64,000 nucleotides of DNA from Planctomycetota bacterium (lineage in GTDB: Bacteria > Planctomycetota > UBA1135 > UBA2386). Made by a program: the position numbers and the translations under genes. Location of the stretch: NCBI GenBank assembly GCA_016235155.1, contig JACRLW010000115.1:17115-81114 (forward strand). The letters are read 5' to 3'. Shown here one piece after another: positions 4,401 through 28,721 of this stretch (within the stretch, counting starts at the first letter, position 1; the number at the start of each line of letters is the position of its first letter). The notes beneath the pieces were generated by a model that searched no databases, had not been told where the DNA came from, and saw only the letters and a program-made list of their open reading frames with translations.

Positions 4401-4814
4401 ACGGATCGAGTACGCGTGGCGCGCGACCCCCGTACGCCTTCTTGATCTCGTCGCGAAACCACTGCATGCCCTCCTCGTTCTCGGTCTCGCGCCCCCAGTG
4501 CAGGATGCCACCGACAGTCTCGTCGACGACGCGATCCTCGACTCTGCCGTTCGGCAGCTTCTTCTTCTTGGTGTTCTTGACGAGCTTGCCCCCGATGCGC
4601 TCGCACAGTTCCCTCCGTGCTTCCGGCGTGCCCGGGTCGGGCAGCAGCGTCGCGATCAATGCCGCACGGCACGCGGCCAGCGGTCGCCGCGCCGGCCAGA
4701 TGTGCAAGGTCGAGATGTGGCCGTGCCGCACGTTCTTCTCGTGCACCGAGTCGATCGATGTCTGCTTCAGAGGAAACGCGACCTCGATGAGGCGGGGGCG
4801 GTCTTGTGGTTCGG

Positions 4815-4818
<4 letters not shown>
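1474..4818 (-). CDS. DUF1156-type DNA methyltransferase (N6A/N4C class) with internal Zn-ribbon
   Basis: ORF 1474..5010. The likely start is the internal ATG at 4818 (MTEPQDRPRLIEVAFPLKQTSIDSVHEKNVRHGHISTLHIWPARRP, a DUF1156-like N-terminus), which overlaps the helicase stop as ATGA. SAM motif I: VLDPFAGGGAIPLEAMRLGCEVTANDINP. Motif IV: VIVTDPPYYDAIPYSDLMDFFYVWLRR. Cys pairs: CKQCRAE...CPCCGKPG. Confidence 0.85.
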
Positions 4819-8444
<3,626 letters not shown>

Positions 8445-8487
8445 GCAGCAGGATCCGTAGCAGAGTCTGTTGGTCCAGATTCCGTAG

Positions 8488-8503
8488 TATAGCATGTGCT
8501 ATA
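8488..8503. promoter_or_regulatory. 16-bp palindrome TATAGCA-TG-TGCTATA in the AT-rich leader of the helicase operon (candidate operator / -10 region)
   Basis: Read directly: tatagcatgtgctata. The arms TATAGCA and TGCTATA are exact reverse complements. It lies about 45-60 nt upstream of the GTG at 8444 and is unusually AT-rich for this genome. Confidence 0.35.
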
Positions 8504-8965
8504 TGTGCGATGCAACCCCTAGAAGGCTTCCTGGTGATCCTGTCGAGCCCCATGCACGTGATCCCCGCAACCAAGCTTCGCACGGCCCGGGGGCGTCGTG
8601 TGTTTAGCCGGGGACGGCCGCGGGACGCACCGGGCCTACACGGCGACCTACCTCGCGGCGGTTGCCAGCGGCTTCTCTCTACGTCGTGGTGTAGGCGCCG
8701 TGGACGTTGTCGCGGCCTTGTTCACGGCCCCGTCACGATCGAACCAAGGCGGCGCGTAGGTTTGCGAGGACTGAGGGGACCCGACTGATGCGAAGCAGCG
8801 GGAGGGCGCAGCCCTCCGCCCCGGCACCACGCCAGCCCGCCGTGACGCCTGGGGCCAGGGCACTCCGATCTCCGCCAAACTCCGCGATGCCTTCGATCGC
8901 GCTCGCCCCAGACACCTCCATCGCCTCCGCCACCGCCGTGGGCTTGCCGATGTGCCCGCTACGAC

Positions 8966-9502
8966 TCATGCTGCCCACGCCGCTTTCGATCGCGCCGCCA
9001 TCCGCGACGCACTCGCCGACTGCGGCTTCCTTTCCTTCAGCCGACAGTGACTTCCTCCAGTGTTTCTCAGCACGCGGACGATGCGGATACCTGGGAGCGT
9101 ACGCCGGACGGCGTCCTGCAGGGCATCGACGTCCGCCGCGTCGAAGCGCCGGAAGAAGTCGCCGGCCGTGGTCTGATCAGGGATGCGCTGCGTGCCGACG
9201 GCGTCGAGATAGGCCTCGTTGTTCCGCAGCACCTCGAGGTCTTCGAGGCAGGAGCCGCCGCTCATGGCGTTGAACGCAGGGTTGAGGACATGGTCGGACT
9301 CGGAGCATGGCTTGTGGAGTTGGTCCTGTGCCGGCCAGTTCATGTCCCGGAGCCGATGCTCGATGCCCCGCTTGCAGCGACCAACTTCACGGGCTCTACT
9401 CGTGCTCACTCGAAACGCCTCTTTCGTGGTAGCGGTGGTGGTCCTGCTGAAACCTCCTCCACGCAAGGGAAGGTTGCGTTTCGAGTCGCTTCTCACGGGC
9501 AA
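8966..9502 (-). pseudogene. IS1380-family transposase, N-terminal fragment only
   Basis: The 178-aa ORF contains LNPAFNAMSGGSCLEDLEVLRNNEAYLDAVGTQRIPDQTTAGDFFRRFDAADVDALQDAV. This matches the N-terminal region of IS1380-type DDE transposases as I remember them. No DDE catalytic region follows, and the downstream frames are broken. Confidence 0.45.
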
Positions 9503-9595
9503 GCAAACGCGAACTGCGCTGGATCAAGGCCTAGCAGCCATCGGTCACCTTCACAAGCGAGGTCGTTGCGGGCAGCCCCCGCCTGGGGGCATTGC

Positions 9596-9622
9596 CGCAA
9601 GTTTTCGAAAACCTCGCAAGTT
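9596..9622. promoter_or_regulatory. Perfect 12-bp palindrome GTTTTCGAAAAC (9601-9612) bracketed by direct repeats CGCAAGTT (9596-9603, 9615-9622), upstream of the ABC/KS operon
   Basis: Read directly. It lies 25-50 nt upstream of the ATG at 9647. GGAG at 9636-9639 is a plausible RBS. Confidence 0.3.
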
Positions 9623-9646
9623 CGGACCTCCCACCGGAGCTAAGTC

Positions 9647-10630
9647 ATGAATCGCCGAAGATCCGTTGTTGCAGTCGCTGTGCTCGTGGTTACGCTTGGA
9701 GTTGCGTGGTGGGTCAGCAACCGCGGTTACGAGACGTCCCGCCGCACTCCCATTCGCCTCGCATATGCAACCCAGGTGAGCAACCTCCCCTTCTTCTACG
9801 CCTTGGAGAACGGTGAGTTCGCGCGACGAGGTCTCAAGATCGAACTGCTGCCTCCAATGCTCCAAGCTCCAGATATCGTCGCCGCTGTTCTGGGAGGACA
9901 GGCGGACGGTGCTCTGGATACGGCACTTCTGTCGATCATACAAGCGGACCAACGTGATCCGGGCGTGCTGAGAGTAGTGCTTTGGACGATCGCCAGCAAA
10001 GACAACGCATTCATGAGGATCGTTGTCCCCGTCAAATCGAACATCCATTCTCTCAACGACTTGCGTGGCAGGAGACTTGGCCACTTTCCGAGTCCCCAAC
10101 TCCGTGCGATTTGTTGGGCCATCGCCAAGCGTATAGGTGCCGCCGCGGACGCGATAACGTTGCAACCCACTCCTCCGACAGCCGTGATCGAAGCACTCGC
10201 TGCCGGCGAAATCGACGCTGCGCTTGTGCTGGAGCCAACCGGGACAATTGCAATCGAGCGCGGGATCGCGCGCTCATTGACGGACTCTCCCGTGGTGGAC
10301 TTGGCACATGACGAGATACCCATTGGCGCGTTCTCGCTGTCTGGTGCGTTCTGCACAGACCACCCTGAGGATGCACGCCTCTACGTAGAGGCACTCGAAG
10401 CGGGCGTAGCACTGCTCCGCGCTAATCCCAGGAGCGCACCTGGTTTGATTGCAAAGTATACGGCTGCAAAGAACCCGGATACCGCGGCGAAAGTCACGTA
10501 CCCACGCCATTGGCTGCGTCGCGAAGCGATCGCTGATCACTTCGATTACTTCATGAACCTACTTCGCGAGTCAGGAGTCGAAGTCCCGAAACTTGCTGCC
10601 TCGGACCTGGCTTATCAGGACCAGGAGTGA
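9647..10630 (+). CDS. ABC transporter substrate-binding protein, NMT1/SsuA/TauA-like (NitT/TauT family), N-terminal membrane anchor
   Basis: MNRRRSVVAVAVLVVTLGVAWWV anchor, then IRLAYATQVSNLPFFYALENGEFARRGLKIEL...IDAALVLEP, a typical type-2 periplasmic binding fold of sulfonate/nitrate/taurine binders. A GGAG RBS precedes the start. Confidence 0.8.
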   Translation: MNRRRSVVAVAVLVVTLGVAWWVSNRGYETSRRTPIRLAYATQVSNLPFFYALENGEFARRGLKIELLPPMLQAPDIVAAVLGGQADGALDTALLSIIQADQRDPGVLRVVLWTIASKDNAFMRIVVPVKSNIHSLNDLRGRRLGHFPSPQLRAICWAIAKRIGAAADAITLQPTPPTAVIEALAAGEIDAALVLEPTGTIAIERGIARSLTDSPVVDLAHDEIPIGAFSLSGAFCTDHPEDARLYVEALEAGVALLRANPRSAPGLIAKYTAAKNPDTAAKVTYPRHWLRREAIADHFDYFMNLLRESGVEVPKLAASDLAYQDQE

Positions 10631-10637
10631 CCCGGCG

Positions 10638-11414
10638 GTGTCAGCCCTCAGCATTGTCAATATCCACAAGCGTTACGCGAAGACCGTCGTGCTCGATGGC
10701 TTTGGCCTTGACGTGGATGACGGCGAGATTCTCCTATTGGTGGGTCCTAACGGCGGCGGCAAGTCAACCCTTCTCGGGATCGCTCATGGATCGCTATCGG
10801 CCGATAGCGGCAAACTTGTTAGCACATTTAACCGACATGCGCTTCTTCCGCAGAGATCGGCAGAGACACTATTTCCGTACTACAACTTACGGCGCAACCT
10901 CTGCCTCCCGCTAATTGTCGCGCGCGTTCCGCCGCGGGAATGGGACCAGCGAATCATGGTTTCCCTTAAGGAAATGGGACTCGACGGCGCCGTAACCCCG
11001 CTTCTAGCACGGCACCCGTTTGAAGTATCTGGAGGTCAGCAGCAGCTAGTAACACTCGCGCGGTCGTTGCTAGAGCGACCCGACCTGCTGCTTCTGGACG
11101 AGCCCGCGAAGGAGCTCGATCCCTGGAACGCTCAGTCGCTAATGCACGCCATACGGCACTGGGCTTTCGCTCAACCTCGTCGCGCGGTTGTGATTACCTC
11201 CCATAGCCTTGAACATGTTCTTCGAATCGCAACCCGAGTTCTCTTGCTGGACGGCCCGCCCGTCCGGGTCATTGGTAGCTGGACCCTCGGAGGACTGGGC
11301 ACTGAGAGCTCGCTTGATGGGGCTCGAGATAGAGTCGCGGAGGAAGTGCGTTCGGCCGTACACTCGGCGCTTCGATCCTCGGCCGCGCAAACTGCCCCCG
11401 CAAGGAGCCTATGA
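10638..11414 (+). CDS. ABC transporter ATP-binding protein (NitT/TauT-like)
   Basis: Walker A GPNGGGKSTLLG, Q-loop LLPQR, signature VSGGQQQ, Walker B LLLLDEP, H-loop ITSHS. GTG at 10638 (VSALSIVNIHKRY) sits 8 nt after the SBP stop; the track ORF begins at 10593. Confidence 0.85.
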   Translation: MSALSIVNIHKRYAKTVVLDGFGLDVDDGEILLLVGPNGGGKSTLLGIAHGSLSADSGKLVSTFNRHALLPQRSAETLFPYYNLRRNLCLPLIVARVPPREWDQRIMVSLKEMGLDGAVTPLLARHPFEVSGGQQQLVTLARSLLERPDLLLLDEPAKELDPWNAQSLMHAIRHWAFAQPRRAVVITSHSLEHVLRIATRVLLLDGPPVRVIGSWTLGGLGTESSLDGARDRVAEEVRSAVHSALRSSAAQTAPARSL

Positions 11415-12157
11415 GACGGCTAACTTGGATTGTGCCCCCCGCGGTCGCGCTCGTCCTTTGGGTGCTGATCACGCACAGCAGGGGCGTCTCCAACGCGCTT
11501 CTTCCCCGACCAGGAGCCGTTCTGGCTCGCCTCCTCTCTCTCGTCACGGACTGGAACCTGGGCCTCGATCTCCTCGTTACGCTTCGCTCTGCGGTTACCG
11601 GGCTCCTAGTTGGCTTCGGGATGGGATTCATCCTGGGCCTTTGTTCAGGCGTCCTGCACTGGCTTGACCGCATGCTGTCCCCATCGCTCCACTTCCTGAG
11701 GTCCATCCCCTCTGTGGCGTACTACCCCCTCATCATCCTTTACCTAGGTTTTGGAGAAACGGGTCGCGTTGTGTTGGTGGCAGTTCCAGTATTCCTGCTG
11801 ACGTTTGTCTCGTGCGTTACTGCCGTCCTTTCAGTGAACCGTCACCGCCGGGCGTACTTGAGCGGGCTTGGGGCGTCGCGATGGCAGATCTTCCGCCTTC
11901 TTCTCGTCTGGGAGGCGATGCCCGCAGCAGTCAATGCCCTGCGACTTGCCGTTTCGCTGTCGCTGGTCCTGGTTGTCTTCGGTGAGATGACGATCGGAGG
12001 ATCATCCGGGATTGGTGCTCGCCTTCGAGATGCCCGAGAGGTTTATGCACTCGAAGACGTGTTTGCAATCATTCTTGTCTTGGGTGTCATTGGATGGCTG
12101 GCAAACCGTGCCATCTCGACGCTGGAAGAGCGACTCCAAGTCGCCTGGGGGAGATAG
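11411..12157 (+). CDS. ABC transporter permease (BPD_transp_1-like)
   Basis: Six hydrophobic segments. The start overlaps the ATPase stop (ATGA at 11411-11414). Size and pattern are typical of SsuC/TauC-like permeases. Confidence 0.85.
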   Translation: MRRLTWIVPPAVALVLWVLITHSRGVSNALLPRPGAVLARLLSLVTDWNLGLDLLVTLRSAVTGLLVGFGMGFILGLCSGVLHWLDRMLSPSLHFLRSIPSVAYYPLIILYLGFGETGRVVLVAVPVFLLTFVSCVTAVLSVNRHRRAYLSGLGASRWQIFRLLLVWEAMPAAVNALRLAVSLSLVLVVFGEMTIGGSSGIGARLRDAREVYALEDVFAIILVLGVIGWLANRAISTLEERLQVAWGR

Positions 12158-12159
12158 CA

Positions 12160-13365
12160 GTGATCATGCCGGAAGTTCGAGGCATTGGTGTGGCAACGCC
12201 AATTGGCGTCTCGGTTCCCAGTTTCTGGACCGGCGCGACTCGTGGCCGCTGCGCGATCCAGCGCGATGCGGGATTCGAAAGAGCCGGCCTCCGTAGCCAG
12301 GTCTGCGCGCGTGTTGACGAAGACGAACTTCGGGCCTCGAAGTGGTGGCGTACAGCGTGGACGGAGGAGCCGCGGCACGTCCAATTGGCCTTGGTGGCGG
12401 CGGCGGAAGCATGCGAGCCGGGACTGTATATCGATTCCACGCCCAGTCGCCGATTGGGGTTGGTGTTCTCGACGGCGATGGGGCGTGTTGATAACTTAGA
12501 AACCGGAGCGACTTCCAAGCTCGTGAGAGGGAGGACGCACGCGCGCCACGCGATCCTCGGTGACGCGCTAGCGCGTGAATTCGACATTTCCGGGCCGGTG
12601 ATAGGGATATCCGATGGCTGCACGGGCGGCTTGGATGCTTTTATTACGGCGTGCGAGATGATTGAGGATGGCGATGTCGACGCGTGCCTTACGGTCGCAA
12701 GCGATGCTCCGCTGGCGACGCTAACAATGGCTGCCATGGACAATCTGGGGGTTCTGTCGAGGCGCAACGACGCCCCTGAGCTCTCGTGCCTTCCTTTCGA
12801 CCGCGCCCGCCAGGGCATGGTGATGGCCGAAGCGGCCGGGGCACTATTCCTGTGCGGAGGTCGTCCGGCATCATCGTCGACGCACCTGTCCATGGCGGTG
12901 GTGAGAGGCCACGCGTCCGTTTCGAATTGCCGGTCAATGGTTTCACTGCGTGACGCAGCGGCGGACATGGCTCGCTGCGCACGCGGTGCGATGTTGGCGG
13001 CGGGCGTCAGCGTCCAGGGAATCGATCATCTCAATCTGCACGGGAGTGGAACACGTCAGAATGACGAAGCGGAAGGCGCCGCATTGCGAGAAGTTTTCGG
13101 CGACCACCTGGACCGCATTCCCGCCATCGCGATCAAGTCGCTCACGGGTCATGGACTGGCGGCATCGAACACCGTGGAGCTGGTCGCGGAGGTAATGGTG
13201 CTTCAAACGGGATTATTGCCGCCTGCGCGTGGGCGAGGGTCAGACAACCCCTGGGGTGTACGACTCGTTACCGGCGAGGCCGCTCACCATCGGGCGGTCA
13301 CAGGACTGAAGATGAACCACGGCTTCGGAGGATTTCACTCATGTGTGATTCTAAGTCGCCCCTAG
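12160..13365 (+). CDS. Beta-ketoacyl synthase, type II PKS KS-alpha / FabF-like, catalytic triad intact
   Basis: Active-site Cys in GISDGCTGGLDAFITACEMIEDGDVDAC. His in LNLHGSGTRQNDEAEGAALREVF. His in AIKSLTGHGLAASN. Start is GTG 12160 or ATG 12166, directly after the permease stop (12155-12157). Confidence 0.8.
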   Translation: MIMPEVRGIGVATPIGVSVPSFWTGATRGRCAIQRDAGFERAGLRSQVCARVDEDELRASKWWRTAWTEEPRHVQLALVAAAEACEPGLYIDSTPSRRLGLVFSTAMGRVDNLETGATSKLVRGRTHARHAILGDALAREFDISGPVIGISDGCTGGLDAFITACEMIEDGDVDACLTVASDAPLATLTMAAMDNLGVLSRRNDAPELSCLPFDRARQGMVMAEAAGALFLCGGRPASSSTHLSMAVVRGHASVSNCRSMVSLRDAAADMARCARGAMLAAGVSVQGIDHLNLHGSGTRQNDEAEGAALREVFGDHLDRIPAIAIKSLTGHGLAASNTVELVAEVMVLQTGLLPPARGRGSDNPWGVRLVTGEAAHHRAVTGLKMNHGFGGFHSCVILSRP

Positions 13366-14462
13366 CCTTAGGCGGAGATGAGCCGCCGGACCGTCTTATC
13401 GCGAATCGCGTGCCGAGGCTCCGAGCGGGACGATGGGTAGCTTCAGACGATGCCCCCCGGAACGCAGACGACGAGGGAATCTCCCAGTGTCGTGACTCAC
13501 AGTTCCGCGCTGTCGCTGAACTCACTCCGAAGTCGGAACGCGAGGCGGCGACATTCCGTGAGTCGGACGCATTCGTTCGAGCTGGCGTGGTGGCGGTGCG
13601 GGAGACTGCGAAGGCTGCGCGACTGGATACGACGGTCTTCCGAGACGACCGAAGCATCTTCGCAGCCACAGCATACGGTGGGGTGGGGTTCGCTGAAGAG
13701 GAAGATCGTGTCTTGGTGTCGCGGGGACCGCTCGGGGTAAGCAAGTACCTTTCCACTGGCTGGTTTCCCGCCTCGCTTGCAGGGCACGCGTCGATTCTGT
13801 TCGGCGCAGGTGGCCCATCGCGGACGGTGATCTCCGATTACGGAGGACTGGGAGCTCTCTACCTCGCCTCAAGGTCAATTCGCCGTGGAGTATCCCGGGA
13901 GGCTATCGCGGTTGCGGCAGACGCAGGGTTAGGTTCTGCTACCTCTTCGCCCGAGCGATCGCCCGCCTCGTGTGCGGTCGCCTTGACTCCTGACGGTGCT
14001 ACGTCGCCGAAGCTCACCGCAGTCGTACTTGCGAGTCGAGGTACGTCGATGGCGCCGGAGGAGGAGTGCCTCTCGTTGGCTCTCCAACAGGCGTGCTGGG
14101 AGCCCGAAGCAGTCGATCTGGTTATTGCCTCCACCGGCGACGAACCGCCCGATTGGCGGGGCGCGGCCGCCGTGTTCTGCCGCGACAGAGGTGCACGGGC
14201 GTTGACCTGGAGATATGCGAGGCTTCCGCGGGCCGCGGGAGCAGTGGAGTCGTTGTTGTGGCCTTGCCTCGTGGCCGCGTTGTTGGGAAGGACCGCCGAC
14301 TCGATCTTGAAGGTCTTGTCATCTGAGACGAGAGATCGCGGCGTCAATTGGGCAGGCGTTCGCCCTGGTTTGGTCCAGCGCGCAATCGTGATTGTGGGCG
14401 GAGCGGGAGCGATCGGCGGGTGTGTGGCTATGGAGCTTGACACCAGGGGAGTCACGCAATAG
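13341..14462 (+). CDS. KS-like protein lacking the Cys/His/His catalytic residues (chain-length-factor / KS-beta-like pseudoenzyme)
   Basis: TVISDYGGLGALYLASRSIRRGVSREAIAVAADAGL aligns with the KS active-site loop, but the Cys is replaced or deleted. The STGDEPPDW and RLPRAAGAV regions replace the HGSGT and GHGL motifs. It overlaps the KS stop by 25 nt, and the start is uncertain. Confidence 0.6.
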   Translation: MCDSKSPLALGGDEPPDRLIANRVPRLRAGRWVASDDAPRNADDEGISQCRDSQFRAVAELTPKSEREAATFRESDAFVRAGVVAVRETAKAARLDTTVFRDDRSIFAATAYGGVGFAEEEDRVLVSRGPLGVSKYLSTGWFPASLAGHASILFGAGGPSRTVISDYGGLGALYLASRSIRRGVSREAIAVAADAGLGSATSSPERSPASCAVALTPDGATSPKLTAVVLASRGTSMAPEEECLSLALQQACWEPEAVDLVIASTGDEPPDWRGAAAVFCRDRGARALTWRYARLPRAAGAVESLLWPCLVAALLGRTADSILKVLSSETRDRGVNWAGVRPGLVQRAIVIVGGAGAIGGCVAMELDTRGVTQ

Positions 14463-14510
14463 CCTTCCCCCCGATGGGAGCAATACAATAAGCCATTCCC
14501 AAGACCTACC

Positions 14511-16490
14511 ATGACTGACGACGAATACCAGCGCCTCGAGAGTCTGCGGCTCGTGACGTTCAGTTGCCATGAGGCAGCGCTGCGCGAACTAAAGCCGCTC
14601 CTGAGCGTCAGACGGGAGGTCAAGAGACATCACCTCTTTGAGTTCTTCCTGCGCGAGCCCCTCAGGCAATCGCAACGTTCACCCAACACGCAGAATAGGA
14701 GCTGCTATGTTCCTTTCATAGATCGCGAGGTGGCCGCGCGTGGTTACATCCTCGACCTGCCGCCTTCCGAGACTGACCTCGCGGGCTTTCTTTCGACGCT
14801 CGCGGCCAACGTCTCGGGCACGGGCCCGGTCGCGCTGCCGCTTGTTTCAGCCGCCGCGACGGAGGAGTGCAGAGCGGCCACTGAATTGTCGGACTTGGGA
14901 AGCATCGAAAAGCGACCGGGCTACAACGCTGTTAGCAATGCGTGGAAAGACGGAAACCTCGGATACATCTACAAGAGACTGGAGACCGCCAAGAAGTTTC
15001 GTGACGGGTTCGCTTCCGTCCTGAAGAACCGAGAACTCACACCCCTGCACAGGGCGGCCTTCGCGAACGTCTTCGGGCCGCTGGGGTTGCATCTTCTCTA
15101 TCCGAAGGCACCCGGAGAACTTCTACATGTCGTGGTTTCGATTGCCACCAAGTCGCGCTTCTTCGGTGTCTTGGCTTTGATCATGGACCTTGCACCGAGT
15201 TCAGTGGCAACTAAACGAGAGGCCGAAACGCATAGGAAGAGCCTCATAGCATGCTGTGGAGCGGCTCTCTTGCGCATCTCGCACAAGTTCTTCGTGCCTG
15301 CAATGGTACTGAACTACCAAGGTCAACTGGAAGCGCAAGTCGATGCAAGTTTCGCGCATCGAGGCTCTGGTGCAGTCACGAGAGCAGTCACGAGAGCAGT
15401 CAAACGGGCATGCGACGAGGCCGCGTGCGTCTCACATGCTTCGGCCCCGCTCTCTGGGTTCCAAGACGGTGCGCAAGACGTGCAGGACGCCTTACAGCAG
15501 AACCATCGACTTGAGGAGACACTCGCGCGGGTCTGGCAGGAACGGCTCGAAGTACTATCGTCGCGCAGCGTGAAGAAAGAATCCTTGGTCCGCATTCGCG
15601 AGGGCCTTATGTTCAAACGAATGAAGGTCGCGTCGCCAGGAATGCTGAAGACTGTTCACGACGCGATTCGAGCTGCGAATTCGGTTCGCGGACGTAAGCT
15701 AGATACGGATCCGATTCCATGCGTGCTCGTTGTCGGGTCGGCGGGTTCTGGAAAGGAGAATATCGCGAAGCTGATCCTCGTATTGGCGAGTGGATTTGCC
15801 AATGCGAACGTGACCGTGCAAAACATGGCCGGTGTCAGGGACACGGACGCCATACAACAAGAGATATGGCGGTCGATGGCGCCGGGGCAGTACGGGTTTC
15901 TCTGGGATGAGCTCAACAGCCTGTCGATGGATGTGCAAGGTGCGCTCCTTCGCTTCCTTGAGCAGGGGGAGGTGCAGGGTAAACCGGTCCCAGTTGGGTC
16001 CCGGCTCTTGGTGGTAGGGATCGTCAACGAGGATCCGGGGCAGCTGACGCTGCGCGACGTGCGCGAGAGAACGAGGGACACCGTCGTATTCGGAGAAATG
16101 CTGGGTTCGCTGCTATACGAACATTTCAAGACCAAGAGTCGCATGCGAGACGACCTTTACTTCAGAATCAGGCGCTGTGGCGAGGTTCGCATTTTGGACC
16201 TCGACGACAGGCGAGAAGACATCCCTTCCATCCTGCGTCACCTCTATAGCCGCGCAGGGGGGAGTGAGGCTAACCAACGCGTTTTTTTCACGTATGCGGC
16301 GCTTAGCGCGCTTACGAATCCGGAGATTAGGTGGAAGGGTAATGTGCGCCAGCTTGAGCTAGTGGCCCGCGAGGTACGCACTGAGGTCGATCAGAAGGAG
16401 CGGCTTTCTGGTGGCAGCGACCCCTTTGTGATTGTGGACGAATGGATGGTCCGCCGGAGTATCATTCGCGCACGGGTTGTCGACAGGTGA
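14511..16490 (+). CDS. Sigma54-interaction-type AAA+ ATPase with long N-terminal (possibly GAF-like) sensor region; no GAFTGA loop and no C-terminal HTH
   Basis: Walker A VLVVGSAGSGKENIAKL. Walker B region GFLWDELNSLSMDVQGALLRFLEQGEV. Sensor II region GNVRQLELVAREV. N-terminal HVVVSIATKSRFFGVLALIMDL resembles a GAF beta-strand pattern. No GAFTGA-like sequence lies between Walker A and Walker B. Confidence 0.75.
   Translation: MTDDEYQRLESLRLVTFSCHEAALRELKPLLSVRREVKRHHLFEFFLREPLRQSQRSPNTQNRSCYVPFIDREVAARGYILDLPPSETDLAGFLSTLAANVSGTGPVALPLVSAAATEECRAATELSDLGSIEKRPGYNAVSNAWKDGNLGYIYKRLETAKKFRDGFASVLKNRELTPLHRAAFANVFGPLGLHLLYPKAPGELLHVVVSIATKSRFFGVLALIMDLAPSSVATKREAETHRKSLIACCGAALLRISHKFFVPAMVLNYQGQLEAQVDASFAHRGSGAVTRAVTRAVKRACDEAACVSHASAPLSGFQDGAQDVQDALQQNHRLEETLARVWQERLEVLSSRSVKKESLVRIREGLMFKRMKVASPGMLKTVHDAIRAANSVRGRKLDTDPIPCVLVVGSAGSGKENIAKLILVLASGFANANVTVQNMAGVRDTDAIQQEIWRSMAPGQYGFLWDELNSLSMDVQGALLRFLEQGEVQGKPVPVGSRLLVVGIVNEDPGQLTLRDVRERTRDTVVFGEMLGSLLYEHFKTKSRMRDDLYFRIRRCGEVRILDLDDRREDIPSILRHLYSRAGGSEANQRVFFTYAALSALTNPEIRWKGNVRQLELVAREVRTEVDQKERLSGGSDPFVIVDEWMVRRSIIRARVVDR
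15372..15402 (+). repeat. In-frame 12-bp tandem duplication GCAGTCACGAGA x2 plus a partial third unit (encodes AVTR-AVTR-AV)
   Basis: Read directly: gcagtcacgaga gcagtcacgaga gcagtca. It lies inside the AAA+ gene linker region. Confidence 0.7.
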
Positions 16491-16748
16491 CTCGGTTTTC
16501 GCAACATCATAGACATGGGTCTGGTGTCTACGGCGCGTATGCGCGTGTGCGGCCTCTCTAGAGCAAAGTATGTCGGACTCGACACTATGCACATTCCCGG
16601 CAGCATGCGACGGTCGCATGAACGGGCGGTGAGGGGCCTGGGCGGGGCGGCGGCAGTGACCTCGGGGAGGCCGGCTCGGCGGAGCGCACCGGGCTCGGCT
16701 ACCTCCGAGACCCAACCGCCGTGCCAACTTCCCGCTCGGACCCCTCCG

Positions 16749-16779
16749 CCACCGTTGACCAACGGTGTTTCAACGGTGG
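16749..16779. repeat. 10-bp inverted repeat CCACCGTTGA ... TCAACGGTGG with a nested CAACGGTG direct repeat, in a ~570-bp non-coding gap
   Basis: Read directly: ccaccgttga ccaacggtgtt tcaacggtgg. No convincing ORF on either strand between 16491 and 17063. Confidence 0.5.
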
Positions 16780-17063
16780 TTCGTCGAAACCGTCACAAGT
16801 TTGGGACCTACTCGGAAGCCCTGCCGTCGAGGTCCAGGCCCGTCGACGCCAGTCCCGCGACGCTCCCCCCGAAGACCTCGAAGTTCACCTCCCGGGACCG
16901 CTTCGGCGACCCCTTCCCGTTCCCCCGGGAGGAGGATCGTCGCCGACCAACGCGGAGCCGAACCAGGCCACGACTACTGACGGGATCCGCGGGGGACGGT
17001 TCATCGATTGCTATCGCCCTGCCGATTAGCGGCCGCCGCGGTCCGGCCCGCTGCATCGGCTTG

Positions 17064-17588
17064 TTATGCGCCGCCCCCCGTTGCTGCGAGCAGTGATTTC
17101 CCCGCGTCACAAAGACGCACGAGTCCCCCGGCGTACCGGTAATCGGCGGGTTCGACGTCAGTTCCATTCCGTTCCGACAGATCGACTGTCCACTCCCCAG
17201 GGAGGTGGAACTCTTTCCGGTAACTCACGATTCGTAGATCCCACCTGGGGCGGTACGGATCGTGCGCAAACGCGTTGCGCAGGCACCGTACAAAGCAGAA
17301 GTAGTCACGAGCTCGGGGCTCCGGGTAACGCAGCCTGTTGGGGATCTTGATCTCGAGGGCTGTATCCAGGGCGATCGCGAGGTTCTGTGTCGCGATCATC
17401 TCCAACCCCCAAGCCGCACGGTCCTTGTCGAGACTCTCGATTTCCTCCGTCCCGAAAGACCAGGGTCCCTTGGAGACGCCAGCCAAGCTCGTCTGGAACG
17501 TCCCAGCTCTGCCGCTAAACACGCCTCGGATCAGAATGCTCAGTACGAGCTGGTCACGAGCAAGATCAAGCGTGTCGACTCGTTTCAC
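17064..17588 (-). CDS. Hypothetical protein with HEPN-like Rx4H motif (CLRNAFAHDPY)
   Basis: 174-aa ORF with a GTG start and coding-like third-position bias on hand translation. The only recognisable motif is R-N-A-F-A-H (Rx4H, with the RNxxAH flavour seen in Abi-type HEPN families). GC is lower than in the core genome. Confidence 0.5.
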   Translation of the reverse strand: MKRVDTLDLARDQLVLSILIRGVFSGRAGTFQTSLAGVSKGPWSFGTEEIESLDKDRAAWGLEMIATQNLAIALDTALEIKIPNRLRYPEPRARDYFCFVRCLRNAFAHDPYRPRWDLRIVSYRKEFHLPGEWTVDLSERNGTDVEPADYRYAGGLVRLCDAGKSLLAATGGGA

Positions 17589-18371
17589 CTTTCGTTCTTG
17601 GTGCTCATGGCGTCTCGGCCGCTGACCCGCGCGAGGGAAGCGAGCGTCGGGTCCTGCGGCTCGATGGGCGGTAGTCTATCCACAATCCCTCGAAGTGATC
17701 ACGTCGAGTAGTGGCTGAATCTGCTCGGGTCTGGCAGCCGGAAAGCTCACCCGATCGATCGCAGCGTCCGGGTCATCGGCGTAGTCCGTGAGATGTGCGA
17801 CTCGCAGCCGAAGCACGCAAACGACTCGATGTCGCCGGAGCACTCGAACGACATCGGCTAGTAACCAGTGCGGGATGTCTACGAAAGGCAGAATCCCATC
17901 ACCGCCAAGGCGAGTCGGCGCACGGCCGGGGTTCACTCGAAGACCGCTTCAAGGCCACCTGTTTCGCATGGGTCTGTCCGCTCAACGTCTTGCCGCTCCG
18001 CCGCGCTCGGCATGGCGCGCGTTGGCTGCTGCGGCGGATTGGACAGCAGTCTACCGTCCGCGCATCGTCCGGTCGCGGGCGCCCGACCAGGAACTGGTGT
18101 AGAGCACTTGCCTTGGCTTCATGCCCCGGGGTCCGGCACCTCGATCGCAGCCAGGATGCCGAAACCGGTCCACCTGCCGTCGAGCGATCAGTCCTCGATG
18201 AGCGCCTCGGCCGCCATCACGGACTGAATGAACGTGATCGGGTCACTCTCGGACCACGCATCACGAACCGGCCACAGGAACAGCTGTCCACCGCCACCTC
18301 ACGATCGAGCCCGGCGAGCCGTCGTTGATCCCCGCCGGGCATCCGGTCCGTCCCGCTCGAATCAGCGGTAC

Positions 18372-18767
18372 TCAGTTGGTGGACAACACGCTCTGCAACT
18401 TCTCGATCGTCGCCCGCAGCTGATCGCGCTCGCGCTCCACGCCCTTGATGTGCTGGACGATGCCGTCGATGCCGCTGAGTGCCGAGGCCTTCGCCTTGGG
18501 CGGGCGACCTGGACCCCGGCGGACGACGCCAGCAGCGGCGGTCTTGGCGGCGGCCTTCGCCGCCTTCTTCGCGGCAGCCTTCGCCTTCTTGGCCGGGTTC
18601 GCCTTGACCAACCCGAGCAGCAGCTTCGCTCGCCCGAAGACGACCGGGTAGATCTTGTGGCCCTTGGCCTTCGCCTTGGCCGCGACGTCGGCGTAGGCGA
18701 CCTTGGGGTCCTTCTGGAGCATGCTGTGGACGAACGCGAACGCGTCTTTGCCTTTCTGGTTGGCCAT
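18372..18767 (-). CDS. Lys/Ala-rich histone H1-like DNA-binding protein with AT-hook (RGPGRPPK) and C-terminal coiled coil
   Basis: The internal ATG at 18767 (MANQKGKDAF...) is preceded by AAGGGAGG 6 nt upstream. Also present: AKKAKAAAKKAAKAAAKTAAA and RRGPGRPPKAK. The track ORF extends to 18821. Confidence 0.7.
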   Translation of the reverse strand: MANQKGKDAFAFVHSMLQKDPKVAYADVAAKAKAKGHKIYPVVFGRAKLLLGLVKANPAKKAKAAAKKAAKAAAKTAAAGVVRRGPGRPPKAKASALSGIDGIVQHIKGVERERDQLRATIEKLQSVLSTN

Positions 18768-18929: not shown

Positions 18930-20206
18930 GTGTCCACAGCCGAACTGCGCGTCGAGACCGTCGCGCTCGAGCGTCTCTTTCCCTCGCCGTCGAACCCCCG
19001 CCGCAACGACGAGGCGGTCGAGCATGTCGCGGCGTCGATCCGGCGCTTCGGGTTTCAGCAGCCGATCGTCGCGAAGCCTTCGGGCGAGATCGTCGCGGGC
19101 CACACCCGCTACCGCGCCGCGAAACAGATCGGGCTCGCTGAGGTGCCCGTGGCCTGGTTCGGCGGCACCGACCTCGACGCGACGGCCTATCAGATCGCCG
19201 ACAACCGGACTCACGAGTTCGCGAGCTGGGACGACGAGGCCCTCGCCAAGCTGCTGGTGCAGCTCCGCGAGGAGGACGCGCTGGAAGGCGTCGGCTTCGA
19301 CGACGACGACATCGATCGACTGATCGCGGAGCTCGACACCGAGACCAAGGACCTCGACGACGAGGGCGCCGGCGAGCCACCCGAGCGCCCCACTTCGCGT
19401 CGCGGCGATCTCTGGCTCTTGGGCTCCCACCGCCTCCTCTGCGGCGACTCCACGAATGCCGACGACGTGGCGCGGCTGATGAACGGCGAGAAGGCCACGC
19501 TACTCGCGACCGATCCGCCCTACCTCGTCGACTATCAAGGCGGCAACCATCCGCAGTCGTCGGTGAACCGGCCCGACGTCAAGGACAAGCACTGGGACGA
19601 CTACGTCGATCCGCAGACCAGCGTCGAGTTCTTCGCGACGTTTCTCCGCCTCGCGTTGCAGCACTGCGTGGAACGCGTGCCCGTCTACCAGTGGCACGCG
19701 ACGCGGCGCCAGGTGCTCGTGGAGGAAGCCTGGAAGGCGAACGGCTTGCTCGTCCACCAGACGCTTGTTTGGGCCAAACGCGCTCTCACTACCTGTGGGC
19801 CCACGAGCCCTGCTTCTACGGCTGGCGCGAGGGCTCCATGCCCGAGAAGGATCGCCGGCCCGATCCCGGCGAGCGCACGGTGTGGGACGTCGATCAGCAG
19901 GGCGAGAACGATGGGGTGCATCCAACTCAAAAACCGACGCTGCTCTTCGAGAAGCCGATCACGTTCCACACGCGGCGCGGTGAAGTCGTGATGGAACCGT
20001 TCAGCGGCAGCGGCACGCAGCTCATCGCGGCCGAACGTCACGGCCGCCGCTGCTTCGCGATGGAGCTGTCGCCGGCCTTTGTCGACGTCGCGGTGCTCAG
20101 GTGGCAGAGGGCGACCGGCCAGCAGGCCACGCTCGACGGCGACGGCAGCAGCTTCGACGACGTCAGCGCACAGCGCAGCGTCGCCGCGGAGGAGCACGCC
20201 CCGTGA
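18930..20206 (+). pseudogene. ParB-like nuclease domain / N4-N6 DNA methyltransferase fusion (phage/plasmid type), frameshifted near 19778
   Basis: Frame A (18930..): PSPSNPRRNDEAVEHVAASIRRFGFQQPIVA...GHTRYRAA (ParB/Srx), LLCGDSTN, LLATDPPY, ...HQTLVWAK. Frame B (from 19778): TRSHYLWAHEPCFYGW...VHPTQKPTLLFEKPI...VMEPFSGSGTQLIAAERHGRRCFAMEL. The two frames share a single nucleotide at 19778. Confidence 0.8.
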
Positions 20207-20691
20207 CGAAGGGCGCGGCGCCAAACGGCCGTTCTCCCAGCGGCCAATTCGCCAAGGGCAACGCCGGCGGTCCCGGCGGCACCCGCCAGCGCTCTTTCGT
20301 GCTGCGGCAAGCCGCCGAGCACGCGATCACGCCCGAACACATCGAGGCACTGATGCGCAAGGCCTTGCGAATGGGACTCGAGGGCGACGTGCGGGCGATA
20401 CGCCTTGTGCTGGAGTGGACCTGTGGTCGTCCCGCCGAAGTGGCGACCAACGCCGAGCCGTTGGACTTCGCGATGCCGCCGTTGCAGACCGCGGCCCAGT
20501 GCAACGCGGCACTGGAGTTCGTCGCCGCCGCGCTGTGCGAGGGCCGTCTGAATCGCGACGCCGCGCAGGTTCTGATCGAACTGATCCACGCACGCATCAA
20601 GGCGATCGAGGTCGCCGATCTCGAGCGGCGCCTCCTCGAACTGGAAGCGCGATTCGAGACGGTCGAGCCGTTCGGGCGGCGAAGGCGCTGA
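20203..20691 (+). CDS. Hypothetical phage-associated protein (DUF5681-like GQFAKGNAGGPGG N-terminus)
   Basis: GTG at 20203 overlaps the methylase stop (GTGA). The N-terminus VTKGAAPNGRSPSGQFAKGNAGGPGG resembles small phage proteins with an FxKGxSGNPxG motif. The family call is weak. Confidence 0.45.
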   Translation: MTKGAAPNGRSPSGQFAKGNAGGPGGTRQRSFVLRQAAEHAITPEHIEALMRKALRMGLEGDVRAIRLVLEWTCGRPAEVATNAEPLDFAMPPLQTAAQCNAALEFVAAALCEGRLNRDAAQVLIELIHARIKAIEVADLERRLLELEARFETVEPFGRRRR

Positions 20692-20692
20692 G

Positions 20693-21526
20693 ATGCGGGC
20701 TCGTCAACAAACGCGGCTCGGGCAGCTCTCCCAGCGTCTCGCGGCGCAGCCACTGCGCGAGGGCCTGGTAGAGGCGGAGTTCCACAAGTTCGTCGAGACC
20801 GGCGAGTTGCCCGAGGAGCAGCGCCTCGCCGCCGAGGTCGTTCAGCTCGCGATCAGCGGTGGGCCGCGCGCGCCGATGACCGCCGCATCGACGCGCGAAC
20901 TTCTCGCTCGCCTGCCCGAGATCGTGCACGCGCTCGAGGCAGCGGCCGACGAGGCCGACGCGGCCCGCGCGGCCGGGACGAAGCCCAGCCGCCCCGCCCG
21001 GCACGTCTTGTTCGACGAGGCCGTCCGTGGCGAGGGTCTGGTGCGCGCCGCAGCGCGGCTCGTGCTGCAGACCGCCGCGCAACACGGCGCCGACCTCGCG
21101 AGCTTCGAGTTCCTCGCCGATCAGGAGGTGCCCGACCACGTGAGCCTCGGCCTGCACCTGCTCGGCTTCCCGGAGTGCCTGGCGCGGCCGCCCTACGTCG
21201 CGCAGGCCAAGCGGCTGTTCGCGCGGTTCGACGCTCTCCAACCGCGGATCGACCGCGGCGGTCCGGGCTGGTTCGGACCGATCGAACGCGCCGTCCTGGA
21301 CTTCCGATGCACCGGCGAGCTGCCCGAAGATGACCTGGTCCGCGACTGCGCGCTCGCCGAAGCCGAGTTCAACGCGCTGTTCCACCTCGTCTGCGGCGAG
21401 GGCGATGCCGAAGTGCTCGCCGCCTTCGACGAAGCTGCCGGCGCCGACGGGGAACAACGCGCGATCGCGCTCGAGCGGCTGCGCGAGCTGGCTCGCCAAG
21501 GCCGCCTGCTGCCGGCGCAGGAGTAG
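20693..21526 (+). CDS. Hypothetical protein
   Basis: The start lies 1 nt after the preceding stop. Third-position G/C is high on the plus strand. The overlapping minus-strand ORF 20597..21646 looks like an antisense artefact. No motif recognised. Confidence 0.5.
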   Translation: MRARQQTRLGQLSQRLAAQPLREGLVEAEFHKFVETGELPEEQRLAAEVVQLAISGGPRAPMTAASTRELLARLPEIVHALEAAADEADAARAAGTKPSRPARHVLFDEAVRGEGLVRAAARLVLQTAAQHGADLASFEFLADQEVPDHVSLGLHLLGFPECLARPPYVAQAKRLFARFDALQPRIDRGGPGWFGPIERAVLDFRCTGELPEDDLVRDCALAEAEFNALFHLVCGEGDAEVLAAFDEAAGADGEQRAIALERLRELARQGRLLPAQE

Positions 21527-21658
21527 CTCGCCGACGGCAGCCGCAGCGAAGGCTTGCGGACCGCGGCACGGCAAGTCGATTCCACCTAATCGACGCGCCC
21601 GCGCTCCTCGCCGCGAACCTCGCCGACCGGCCTTGCCTCGTCGCATGCTCGCGCAAAT

Positions 21659-22594
21659 GTGTCAGGGAACGCGCGGGCGCTCCGTCGGCGCGAAGTCCAA
21701 GGCCAACTCCAAGTGCAGATCCTCCGCGCCCTCGACCTCTTCGTCGGCCAGTTGCAGGCCGACGGCCGCTCCCCCCACACGATCGGTCAGTATCGACGCC
21801 ACGTTCGCGCGCTCGGCGCCTGGCTGACGGCCACTCGCGGCAGCCTCGACCTCCGCAAGCTGCGCCACCAGGACGTGGCCGCCTTCTTCGGCGCGCCCGC
21901 CGCGCGCACCGCGGCCGGCACGACGCGCGCGAAGCGGGCGACCTCGGTCAACGCGATGCGCACGAGCATCCGCTGCTTCCTCCGCTACCTCCACGAGTCC
22001 GGGGAGATCGGCTCGAACCCGGCGGCACTGCTCAAGCGTGCGCGCTGCGCGCCGCCGCCGCCCCGCGCGATGCGCGACGAGGAGGAGCAGAAGCTGCTCG
22101 CCTACCTCGCCGGCCACGAGGGCGACGCTGCGCGCCGCGACGAGGCTCTGGTTCGGCTGATGCTCGGCGCTGGGTTGCGGATCGGGGCGGCCCTTGGCCT
22201 CGACGTCGAGGACCTCGACTTGGAGCGGGCCGAGGCGCACGTGCGGCGCGACAAGGGCGACCGGAGCGAGACCGTGCTGCTGCCTCACCAGCTCGTCGAG
22301 CACCTCCGCGGCTTCGTCGGCGCCCGGCGATCAGGACCGCTCTTCGCAACCGCGGACGGCGAGCGGGTCTCGACGCGGCACGCGCAGCGGAGGTTCGCCG
22401 CGGCGGTCGCGGCAACGGGCATCGAACGCCGGCTCTCGCCGCACGCGTGCCGGCACGCCTTCGCGACCCGGCTGCTGGCGCGGACGGGGAACTTGCAGCT
22501 CGTCCGACGGGCGATGCACCACCGGTCGATCTCGAGCACTGCCATCTACGCGGCGGTCCGCGACGAAGACGTCCGCCGGGCGCTCGCCGAGTAG
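21659..22594 (+). CDS. Tyrosine recombinase / integrase (XerC/XerD-like)
   Basis: N-terminal SAM-like domain: LFVGQLQADGRSPHTIGQYRRHVRALGAWL. Catalytic region: LRIGAALGLDVEDLDL, HACRHAFATRLLARTGNLQLVRRAMHHRSISSTAIYAAV (R..HxxR..H..Y). Confidence 0.85.
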   Translation: MSGNARALRRREVQGQLQVQILRALDLFVGQLQADGRSPHTIGQYRRHVRALGAWLTATRGSLDLRKLRHQDVAAFFGAPAARTAAGTTRAKRATSVNAMRTSIRCFLRYLHESGEIGSNPAALLKRARCAPPPPRAMRDEEEQKLLAYLAGHEGDAARRDEALVRLMLGAGLRIGAALGLDVEDLDLERAEAHVRRDKGDRSETVLLPHQLVEHLRGFVGARRSGPLFATADGERVSTRHAQRRFAAAVAATGIERRLSPHACRHAFATRLLARTGNLQLVRRAMHHRSISSTAIYAAVRDEDVRRALAE

Positions 22595-22677
22595 CGTCTC
22601 AGACCTCGACTGGTAGCCAGCTCCGATCCGATCCTTCGGTGGAACTGCGGACACCTGTCTGGCGCGTTTCCGGGGTT

Positions 22678-22794
22678 TTCGTCACGGTCCCGCAGAATGC
22701 GGCCATCCTCCGCCGCCGAGCACCGCCGTGCGACTGGCTCCATTCCTCGCACCCGGCGCTGCGAAGTGGTTTCGTCAATTCGTCAATTCGTCCT
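22678..22794 (+). repeat. Iteron-like TTCGTC(A/C) repeats: one copy at 22678-22684 and three at 8-bp spacing at 22771-22794 (TTCGTCAA TTCGTCAA TTCGTCCT)
   Basis: Read directly and checked against the frame of ORF 22697. It is AT-rich relative to its surroundings and intergenic, between integrase 1 and the HTH protein. Confidence 0.6.
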
Positions 22795-22901
22795 GCAAGT
22801 TCAAGACTGCCTCACGCTACGGCGCTTGCTAGCCTGCGGTGCGAGAGCTCACCAAGAGTTGGTGAGTGCTCCTGGTCACATCCCCGAGCAGGCGGTTGAA
22901 G

Positions 22902-23879: not shown

Positions 23880-24003
23880 CAACGCCCATTCCATGTCACC
23901 TTCCGGTTCACGCCGCAGCGTCTGGATCATGGGTTCTCCTCGCCATGAGGGACCGCATGCCGAGGATCATGTCGCACTGGTGACGCCTGCGACTGTCAGT
24001 TCG

Positions 24004-24019
24004 GAGGTCGATCGACCTC
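24004..24019. promoter_or_regulatory. Perfect 16-bp palindrome GAGGTCGATCGACCTC immediately upstream of the small-ORF/primase operon
   Basis: Read directly. It ends 10 nt before the ATG at 24029. Confidence 0.45.
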
Positions 24020-24028
24020 GAACCCACC

Positions 24029-28582: not shown

Positions 28583-28620
28583 GCGGCTGGCCGAGCCCCG
28601 GGAACCGGCGCCCCGTCAGC

Positions 28621-28640: not shown

Positions 28641-28721
28641 CGCTCGCGCCCTCGGGTCCGCCATCCTGGGCGACTTCCTCGCACCTGCGCCAGGGCGCGC
28701 CCGTGTGGCCCGAGCCGCGCA

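Follow-up and report, generated by a model that had tools for sequence, protein, structure and literature searches.

The lsr operon for autoinducer-2 (AI-2) joins an ATP-binding cassette (ABC) importer that depends on a substrate-binding protein (SBP) with cytoplasmic enzymes and a cognate sensor or regulator. PqsBC is a heterodimer of the ketosynthase (KS) type that, with one dead subunit, makes a quorum signal without an acyl carrier protein (ACP). DhaR, a relative of the bacterial enhancer-binding proteins (bEBPs) that lacks the GAFTGA motif, senses its cognate enzyme subunits. GAFTGA is essential, and the GAFTGA-defective relatives TyrR, DhaR and HupR are sigma-70-dependent; VpsR is GAFTGA-defective in the same way and works without sigma-54, a factor missing from Actinobacteria (PMC3162934). 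Here we describe a six-gene operon at positions 9647-16490 of a 64,000-nucleotide stretch of contig JACRLW010000115.1 from a Planctomycetota bacterium (the window), in which an importer, a KS pair and an AAA+ ATPase are encoded together. In our reading, to which we assign a probability of about 0.45, the operon belongs, as the member bearing a KS/chain-length factor (CLF) pair, to a rare family of "import-transform-sense" cassettes not described before, with the AAA+ protein acting as a sigma-54-independent sensor or controller. The AAA+ gene of this family is embedded in an operon for an SBP-dependent ABC importer, usually directly after a lineage-specific small-molecule enzyme gene. The components of the operon are as follows.

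9647..10630, + strand: SBP of the NitT/TauT type (NMT1/SsuA-like); hydrophobic signal or anchor at the N-terminus, MNRRRSVVAVAVLVVTLGVAWW
10638..11414, + strand: ATP-binding subunit of the ABC transporter, 258 aa (Pfam ABC_tran, 79 bits)
11411..12157, + strand: ABC importer permease, BPD_transp_1 (SsuC/TauC/SaoP-like; Pfam, 56 bits)
12160..13365, + strand: KS-alpha, a ketosynthase resembling those of type II polyketide synthases (PKSs), with the N and C domains of Pfam ketoacyl-synt
13341..14462, + strand: KS-beta, a CLF-like partner, with the Pfam ketoacyl-synt N domain only (33 bits)
14511..15560, + strand: N-terminal domain of the AAA+ protein, about 340 aa, a novel alpha/beta domain, possibly a PAS/GAF-like sensor
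15561..16490, + strand: ATPase module of the AAA+ protein, NtrC/bEBP clade, the C-terminal ~300 aa of the 659-aa protein

The six open reading frames (ORFs) are tightly packed on the + strand (9647-10630, 10638-11414, 11411-12157, 12160 or 12166-13365, 13341-14462 and 14511-16490), and their junctions are, in gene order, a 7-nt gap, an ATGA overlap, a gap of 2-8 nt, a 25-nt overlap and a 48-nt gap. Gene calling carried out independently on a Logan contig with the same DNA returned six identical genes; together with the ORF coordinates, this bears out the single, tightly coupled unit with these junctions that a first-pass annotation of the DNA had proposed. Window positions 6591-18468 are 99.99% identical to L093, a 12,020-bp contig from an independent Logan assembly (SRR12113407). 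L093 carries an extra 141 bp (L093:9992-10132) relative to window position 16581, about 90 nt past the AAA+ stop codon and without flanking direct repeats, which is a polymorphism or an assembly difference. The SBP and permease are 284 and 231 aa in the NCBI record versus 327 and 248 aa in the Logan calls, and the deposited SBP start is probably too late, because a 284-aa SBP would be without the N-terminal signal or anchor segment. Scans around the operon for sigma-70 promoters and terminators found none exceeding the shuffled expectation, and an Rfam search of 8-20 kb found no riboswitch or RNA leader at E ≤ 1. A GC-rich hairpin, GCCCCCGCCTGGGGGC, lies immediately upstream of the SBP gene at ~9577-9592.

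The operon has a GC content of 60.2%, against 70.0% for 20-64 kb, and the GC at third codon positions (GC3) of its genes is 0.61-0.67, against 0.85-0.96 in host-type genes. Since both values fall below those of the host type, the inference of foreign DNA is sound. The whole 1-19 kb region, however, is depressed in GC (63%), so that the compositional break is an island boundary and is not specific to the operon. The earlier claim of low-GC foreign DNA thus holds for the break itself, which is real, but has to be widened to the entire 19-kb island. Within the island the six-gene operon has the lowest GC3. Among plasmid-borne proteins, the best relatives of one host protein come from actinomycetes and are only 28-37% identical to it. 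The six genes form one horizontally acquired operon.

The AAA+ protein is the component by which the family is defined. Its ATPase module has the Walker A motif GSAGSGKE, the Walker B motif WDELNSL and the sensor II motif GNVRQLE. In Pfam, AAA_lid_14 reaches 31 bits, above the cutoff, while Sigma54_activat reaches 25 bits for the whole protein with no single stretch passing. A profile of the family matches the structures of NtrC1, CapR, NifA, LuxO and PspF at ~50-80 bits, NtrC1, CapR and NifA scoring ~80. No GAFTGA occurs in the 48-aa segment between Walker A and Walker B of the window protein, and a GAFTGA-like loop (G[AS]F[TS]G[AS]) is found in none of the 147 family representatives; the segment corresponding to the L1 loop differs in length among members and shows no sequence conservation. 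Most members retain intact Walker A and Walker B motifs. Pfam and NCBIfam scans detected no helix-turn-helix (HTH) domain in the protein, and the tail beyond sensor II measures ~46-49 aa across the family. Within the 300 nt upstream of the first gene of each operon, no -24/-12 promoter attained nine of the ten consensus positions with the GG/GC core in any of 15 operons, the best reaching seven of ten. From these motifs, the AAA+ protein is predicted to be a bEBP derivative that is ATPase-competent and cannot use sigma-54 or a classical HTH, which agrees with the first-pass view of an NtrC-like ATPase unable to contact sigma-54 or DNA by the usual motifs. Because the sigma-54-contacting loop has been lost, the family should act independently of sigma-54.

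The N-terminal domain sets the family apart further. Several motifs are kept across it (YEYF..P, PF[LI]xR, PIAS..FYG.L, Y.P.L.L.HN..E and LW..R), and a profile built from 19 sequences had no match in Pfam, nor among PDB sequences at E ≤ 10. An AlphaFold2 model of the domain from the 19-sequence alignment is confident (pLDDT 80.8, pTM 0.83) and shows a core of mixed alpha/beta structure, after which long helices run into the AAA+ module; a model of the full-length protein from four sequences had a pLDDT of 50 and was unusable. A Foldseek search of the domain model against the PDB yielded no significant hit (best E 0.03, TM ≤ 0.24); its weak hits are mostly LOV, PAS and GAF sensor domains, the GAF domain of NifA included. 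With no significant Foldseek match, a GAF/PAS identity was rejected as a finding and kept as a hint. Judged by its sequences, then, what appears to define the family is an AAA+ ATPase of bEBP descent in which GAFTGA and the HTH have been lost and a novel ~340-aa N-terminal domain has been gained.

Word-index searches with the AAA+ protein or its profile returned three relatives only, and degenerate-pattern scans together with exhaustive HMMER searches revealed the family. The three relatives lie in tight operons beside an enzyme gene (short-chain dehydrogenase/reductase, SDR, or polyprenyl-synthase-like) and ABC importer genes, and they have the N-terminal domain in common with the window protein; one of them, P0003, is 48% identical to it over 99% of its length. 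Exhaustive HMMER searching of 1.84 billion proteins yielded 175 representatives at E ≤ 1e-30, followed by generic bEBPs. Profile A1, of which the window protein is a founding sequence, separates the family (at least 127 bits) from ordinary sigma-54 activators (at most 84 bits). The pattern scans gave 24 metagenome loci and five genome loci, the latter all in metagenome-assembled genomes (MAGs) among 185,579 species-representative genomes. The loci belong to Gamma- and Alphaproteobacteria, Sedimentisphaerales and Brocadiaceae, with one contig binned to Promethearchaeota; these assignments are bin labels, the archaeal one being especially unverified. That the family has escaped description is probably due to its rarity (175 clusters; five of 185,579 genomes). 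We found no earlier description of the gene combination or of the AAA+ family in the literature searched, the coverage of which was incomplete.

About 30 of the ~175 family clusters were examined at the level of loci. The usual order in the relatives is an SBP gene (Peripla_BP_6), one or two enzyme genes, the AAA+ gene, two BPD_transp_2 permease genes and two ABC ATPase genes. Importer parts adjoin the AAA+ gene at 24 of 29 testable loci, and between the upstream gene and the AAA+ gene the median gap is 5 nt, 22 of 25 such gaps not exceeding 30 nt. The enzyme slot holds a polyprenyl-synthase-like gene at 12 loci (13 with L004), an SDR at five, a B12-radical-S-adenosylmethionine (radical SAM) protein plus ThiF at two and an unassigned 153-aa protein at two; one locus has an added M28 peptidase. 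DDxxD motifs are present in the three polyprenyl-synthase-like sequences inspected, one of which has a variant second motif. All cassette enzymes that could be assigned to a family fall far short of the NCBIfam equivalog cutoffs and hence are no orthologues of housekeeping enzymes. Both the AAA+ clusters obtained by UPGMA and the nearest neighbours of the SBPs follow the enzyme type exactly, which indicates that the cassette diversifies as a unit. Conservation does not extend to the exact six-gene set, a point that the first-pass annotation had proposed to check; the core is an ABC importer with a member of the AAA+ family, and the enzyme is lineage-specific.

The closest AAA+ relative of the window protein is that of L001 (48-50% identity), where the gene fragment before the AAA+ gene aligns colinearly to the C-terminus of the window KS-beta (E 0.005). 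On this alignment, the KS/CLF clade probably has two known members, the window and one 2.6-kb Logan contig from SRR22573060. At another locus, L072, the AAA+ family protein is split into an N-terminal-domain ORF (460-1650) and an AAA+ ORF (1704-2591) 53 nt apart, representing either a frameshift or pseudogene or a natural two-gene version. The contig binned to a Promethearchaeota (Asgard) MAG, L007 (DXJM01000015.1, 8305 bp, 33% GC), carries a cassette of polyprenyl-synthase-like, M28 peptidase, AAA+, two permease and two ATPase genes. Provided that the contig is correctly binned, the family extends across domains of life and functions in an organism that has no sigma-54.

The tight coupling of enzyme and AAA+ genes also bears on a different account, in which the AAA+ hexamer is an activase or remodeller that acts mechanically on the enzyme or the transporter, in the manner of Rubisco activase/CbbX or MoxR-type ATPases, and import serves substrate salvage or assimilation. 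The mid-operon position of the AAA+ gene at a median of 5 nt from the enzyme gene, its co-diversification with the enzyme, the intact Walker motifs of most members and the missing DNA- and sigma-54-contact motifs all fit such a role, and the invariant residues of the N-terminal domain suggest a constant mechanical one. The partner enzymes, however, have unrelated folds (thiolase, isoprenyl synthase, Rossmann SDR and radical SAM), which a single remodelling mechanism could hardly fit, and the L1-loop region that would contact a substrate is variable in length and unconserved. Given, in addition, that the bEBP clade has no known activase member and that some loci are without any enzyme, we consider this account unlikely, though it deserves to be kept in view.

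In the window, the enzyme slot is occupied by the KS pair. The best PDB matches of KS-alpha are the actinorhodin KS (1TQY_A, 172 bits) and 6SMO_B (158 bits), with FabF behind at 131 bits. In the alignment to 1TQY_A the catalytic Cys, His and Lys/His and the GFGGF motif are preserved: DGCTGG, HGSGTRQND and IKSLTGHG pair with what we take to be C169, H309, K341 and H346 of that chain. KS-alpha is predicted to be catalytically competent on the strength of these residues, and its NCBIfam scores lie far under the equivalog cutoffs (fabF 195 versus 494, AmcF 130 versus 325). KS-beta has an Asp in place of the catalytic Cys ('SD-YGGLGA' aligned to 'SDVAGMQA' of 6SMO_C) and lacks the Gln that is canonical in the CLFs of aromatic PKSs. 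In the PDB it matches CLF chains best (6SMO_C, 57 bits; 1TQY_B, 49 bits), the similarity spanning only ~120 residues, and a word-index search across 5.8 billion clusters returned KS-beta itself as the only homologue. No plasmid homologues of the DNA encoding the pair were found. Since the nearest structures are KS/CLF chains and Asp replaces Cys in KS-beta, the pair is read as a KS-alpha/CLF-type heterodimer, and the active KS-alpha with a dead KS-beta that had been proposed from the sequence is upheld by the 1TQY_A alignment, the CLF-chain matches and the Asp at the Cys position.

The pair has no carrier protein of its own. A tblastn search of the whole window with manually entered sequences of E. 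coli AcpP and the actinorhodin ACP found no ACP-like ORF (best E ≥ 1), and no acyltransferase (AT), ketoreductase (KR), thioesterase (TE), malonyl-CoA:ACP transacylase or cyclase/aromatase was detected in the scanned ORFs up to ~10 kb from the operon in either direction. These scans corroborate the first-pass statement that ACP and tailoring genes are absent. For want of its own ACP, the KS/CLF would have to use host ACP or CoA substrates.

The transport genes encode an importer and not an exporter, as had been supposed, given an NMT1/SsuA-like SBP, a BPD_transp_1 permease and an ABC_tran ATPase in one operon. The SBP scores 66 bits with Pfam NMT1, 40 bits with NMT1_2 and 67 bits with NCBIfam SsuA_fam (cutoff 163), and the taurine SBP model gives 18 bits against a cutoff of 304; its sole sequence relative in the PDB is 4NMY (E 2.5e-7). 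The permease scores 98 bits with SaoP, 88 with SsuC (cutoff 347) and 78 with TauC, each under its cutoff. With NCBIfam scores so far under the equivalog cutoffs, the importer substrate cannot be assigned. The NitT/TauT importer is unique to the window, all other cassettes of the family using importers of the LivKHMGF/HAAT type, and its genes lie upstream of the AAA+ gene, whereas the relatives place their permeases downstream.

Under the import-transform-sense reading, the SBP, permease and ATPase would bring in a specific extracellular small molecule, and KS-alpha/CLF would carry out a decarboxylative Claisen condensation on the imported molecule or on host acyl or malonyl thioesters. The N-terminal domain of the AAA+ protein may then sense either the ligand or how the enzyme is loaded, for which DhaR is a precedent, and the ATPase would spend ATP on a sigma-54-independent output controlling the cassette or its enzyme.

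Several points weigh against this scheme. The ligand, the substrate and product of the KS and the target of the ATPase are all putative. As the N-terminal domain has no significant structural match, its sensor role is only a hint, and the invariant residues E44, P68, G219 and E274 could reflect a partner that stays constant rather than ligands that vary. A transcriptional output would be without any known mechanism, since the AAA+ protein has no recognisable DNA-binding domain. There is no adjacent enzyme at L005, L067 and L082 and no importer at L006. Considering that the importer family of the window differs from that of the relatives and that the KS/CLF clade has two members, the window cassette could be a recent recombinant, in which case its parts might not all cooperate. 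Furthermore, genes of the relatives were called by a simple longest-ORF, greedy method, and their starts and small genes are approximate. L006, on a 601-kb contig of an Alphaproteobacteria MAG, encodes a lone 613-aa member (9512-11353) with no same-strand importer or enzyme gene nearby.

The same components could also serve cell-cell signalling. The enzyme would make a diffusible signal from primary-metabolism thioesters, the importer would retrieve it and the AAA+ protein would be its cytoplasmic receptor, by analogy with Lsr/AI-2 or with pheromones imported by Opp. The interchangeable enzyme beside a constant importer and AAA+ protein, all three co-diversifying, would suit this scheme, as would enzymes of anabolic or condensing types that are far from housekeeping orthologues; PqsBC sets a precedent for the synthesis of a quorum signal by a KS-type heterodimer that has one dead subunit and uses no ACP. 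A further parallel comes from the polyprenyl clade, in which a conserved small ORF (~43-66 aa) with a good Shine-Dalgarno sequence is found between the SBP and polyprenyl-synthase-like genes at the following positions.

L008: 3073-3273, small ORF
L064: ~3643-3849, small ORF
L065: 1604-1744 (ATG ~1613), small ORF
L068: 1884-2060, small ORF
L078: 1919-2059, small ORF
L079: ~694-861, small ORF
L004: 1119-1277, small ORF

The N-termini of these ORFs are conserved (MAQIHLRYLPKH, MAQMHIRYLARH, MAQYLAHVR, MGQYLPHVR, MPALNI and MPALQI, following the pattern MAQ..YL..H or MPAL.I), and their C-termini are variable and rich in Lys. By analogy, the small ORF looks like a leader/core precursor peptide beside a ComQ-like enzyme, which recalls the arrangement around a ComQ-type prenyltransferase and would favour signalling. 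ComQ and PalQ are peptide prenyltransferases with the polyprenyl-synthase fold (PMC10853753; bioRxiv 10.64898/2026.08.29.745113). As in ComQ/ComX, the polyprenyl clade has a gene for an enzyme of this fold next to a small peptide gene; unlike ComX, its peptides are without Trp, the known ComQ target, and the window has no small peptide gene. The signalling scheme is argued wholly by analogy, and it meets further difficulties in that no cassette has an exporter, the AAA+ protein has no DNA-binding domain as an output and the enzyme is absent at some loci. We therefore regard it as improbable, albeit not negligibly so.

Similarly speculative, and in our estimate doubtful, is a broader proposal that extends across the family: the AAA+ proteins may mark new modular cassettes for small-molecule perception or communication, each with a swappable signal-making or signal-modifying enzyme, a high-affinity importer devoted to the signal and, as its receptor in the cytoplasm, an AAA+ protein that signals by ATP-driven remodelling and not through sigma-54 or a classical HTH. 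Horizontal transfer may have carried such cassettes between distant bacterial phyla and perhaps into an Asgard archaeon.

The surroundings of the operon and of its relatives raise two other explanations. The operon sits in a composite island, with an Hma (helicase-methylase-ATPase) system on one side and integrases at a tRNA-Met gene on the other. The flanking features are listed below.

2-1717, - strand: DUF499 ATPase of the Hma system, running off the window start
1474-5010, - strand: HmaB, DUF1156 methylase (363 bits)
4815-8495, - strand: HmaA, SNF2 helicase with HTH and NOV_C (533 bits)
18930-19991: ParB_N protein
20101-20691: DUF5681 protein
21659-22594: tyrosine integrase, first
22866-23879: HTH protein
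24199-26763: DUF3987 primase-helicase with CHC2 zinc finger
27341-28582: tyrosine integrase, second
28971-29044, - strand: tRNA-Met

The left flank (1-8495) is a complete Hma-type defence system, the genes of which have GC3 values of 0.75-0.84, between those of the operon and the host. Across 18930-29044 the GC content alternates between 0.64 and 0.72, in tandem integrative elements beside the tRNA-Met gene, and this alternation suggests at least two such elements. The flanks claimed in the first-pass annotation were confirmed as to the Hma defence system and the integrative elements, but its insertion-sequence stump and HEPN gene are without database support. A 174-aa ORF at 17064-17588 (- strand) contains an HEPN-type Rx4H motif, RNAFAH (RCLRNAFAHDPY); it had no Pfam, PADLOC or PDB sequence match, and the HEPN call stays at the level of the motif. 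At ~9050-9270 (- strand), within the ORF 8966-9502, the peptide SGGSCLEDLEVLRNNEAYLDAVGTQRIPDQTTAGDFFRRFDAADVDALQDAV looks like the N-terminal region of a DDE transposase, presumably an IS1380-like one; it had no Pfam match and no plasmid DNA match, nor were plasmid homologues found for the 8.5-9.6 kb spacer.

An operon that adjoins a complete Hma system, lies near a small Rx4H ORF and is carried on an integrative island might itself be an anti-phage defence system, the more so as restriction or McrBC genes occur near a few relatives. Against this, no cassette protein has a specific match in PADLOC-DB v2: the SBP, permease, KS-alpha and KS-beta had no match, the ABC ATPase gave generic P-loop cross-matches and the AAA+ protein gave weak RtcR-type matches through its lid domain (44 bits). 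The 82 proteins in the flanks of 14 longer relatives are heterogeneous, comprising leftover importer parts, housekeeping genes (SecA), oxidoreductases and a few mobile-element genes, and defence genes are sporadic among them, with single instances of McrBC, restriction enzymes and a phospholipase effector. No relative of the cassette was found on IMG/VR viral contigs, and SBP-dependent importers are not a known component of defence. Among these 14 relatives no consistent placement near defence genes was apparent, and the view of the first-pass annotation that the combination matches no described cluster or defence system stands, there being neither a specific PADLOC match nor a description in the literature searched. 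We judge a defence function to be very improbable, and the defence-island context of the operon appears incidental.

The same flanks speak to whether the cassettes are pieces of larger pathways. None of the 82 proteins has a PP-binding, AT, KR or TE domain; with flanks this heterogeneous and free of PKS domains, the cassettes are neither fragments of PKS or lipid clusters nor consistently located in defence islands. No homologous operon embedded in a PKS, aryl-polyene or lipid cluster with an ACP, the origin that would have made the operon a fragment, was seen among the 14 longer relatives.

It could still be supposed that a remnant of a type II PKS or a fatty-acid-like system has come to lie beside an unrelated sulfonate-type importer and a degenerate regulator, with no joint function. 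Such a chance juxtaposition would account for the lack of an ACP, KR or other partner, for an importer family unlike that of all relatives and for a KS-beta without detectable homologues, and a mosaic island with a transposase-like fragment upstream would be a plausible place for it. Decay, however, is hard to reconcile with six intact ORFs whose junctions overlap or nearly abut and whose GC and GC3 are uniform, with intact catalytic residues in KS-alpha or with an independent read set that yields a 99.99% identical operon. Moreover, the AAA+ family is linked to an importer and an enzyme at most loci, and L001 seems to keep an upstream KS-beta-like gene despite an AAA+ identity of only 48-50%. 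Chance assembly is, in our view, a highly implausible explanation.

If the cassette works as a unit, it would represent a new mode of output for the bEBP branch of AAA+ ATPases, with no sigma-54, no HTH and a new N-terminal domain, and a KS/CLF pair at work away from any polyketide cluster and with no carrier protein of its own. The constant importer and ATPase combined with a swappable enzyme would likewise suggest a general plug-in architecture for the sensing and processing of extracellular small molecules, and such an architecture could be a source of new metabolites, ligand-responsive switches and SBP-ligand pairs.

Compared with the systems described to date, the operon combines familiar parts in an unfamiliar setting. 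The type II PKS KS/CLF pairs (actinorhodin, 1TQY, and chains B and C of 6SMO/6SMP, which we take to be an anthraquinone minimal PKS) are the nearest structural-sequence relatives of both subunits. The window pair resembles them in its 25-nt gene overlap, which is typical of KS/CLF pairs, and 6SMO_C likewise has Asp for Cys. Unlike type II PKSs, it is without an ACP, malonyl transferase, KR, cyclase or aromatase in our scans and is coupled to an importer and an AAA+ ATPase, and both of its subunits are very divergent from their type II PKS counterparts. PqsBC is alike in being a condensing heterodimer with one dead subunit and no ACP of its own, but is of the FabH type, whereas the window pair is of the KS/CLF type. 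The importer shares with NitT/TauT importers (SsuABC, TauABC and ThiXYZ-type) an NMT1/SsuA-type SBP, a single BPD_transp_1 permease and a single ATPase; in contrast to those systems, its operon is without sulfonate monooxygenase or desulfonation genes and without a riboswitch.

With TyrR, DhaR, HupR and VpsR, the AAA+ protein has in common a bEBP-derived module without the sigma-54-contacting loop, and the sensing of an enzyme by DhaR would parallel the co-diversification of AAA+ protein and enzyme in the cassette family. These regulators keep a C-terminal HTH and known N-terminal sensors (ACT/PAS, GAF or receiver) and their genes adjoin the target operons, whereas members of the AAA+ family are without an HTH and are encoded mid-operon, with enzyme genes on one side and permease genes on the other. 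Functionally, the nearest analogues of the cassette are these regulators, DhaR above all, and operons of the lsr kind. The overall logic of uptake, processing and sensing is the same as that of the lsr operon for AI-2, but the two have no homologous parts, the proposed sensor of the cassette being an AAA+ ATPase without a DNA-binding domain and its enzymes being condensing or anabolic. We regard the cassette as an uptake operon with a bEBP-derived, putative sensor ATPase, in which each part comes from a known superfamily and the AAA+ family and its N-terminal domain are new.

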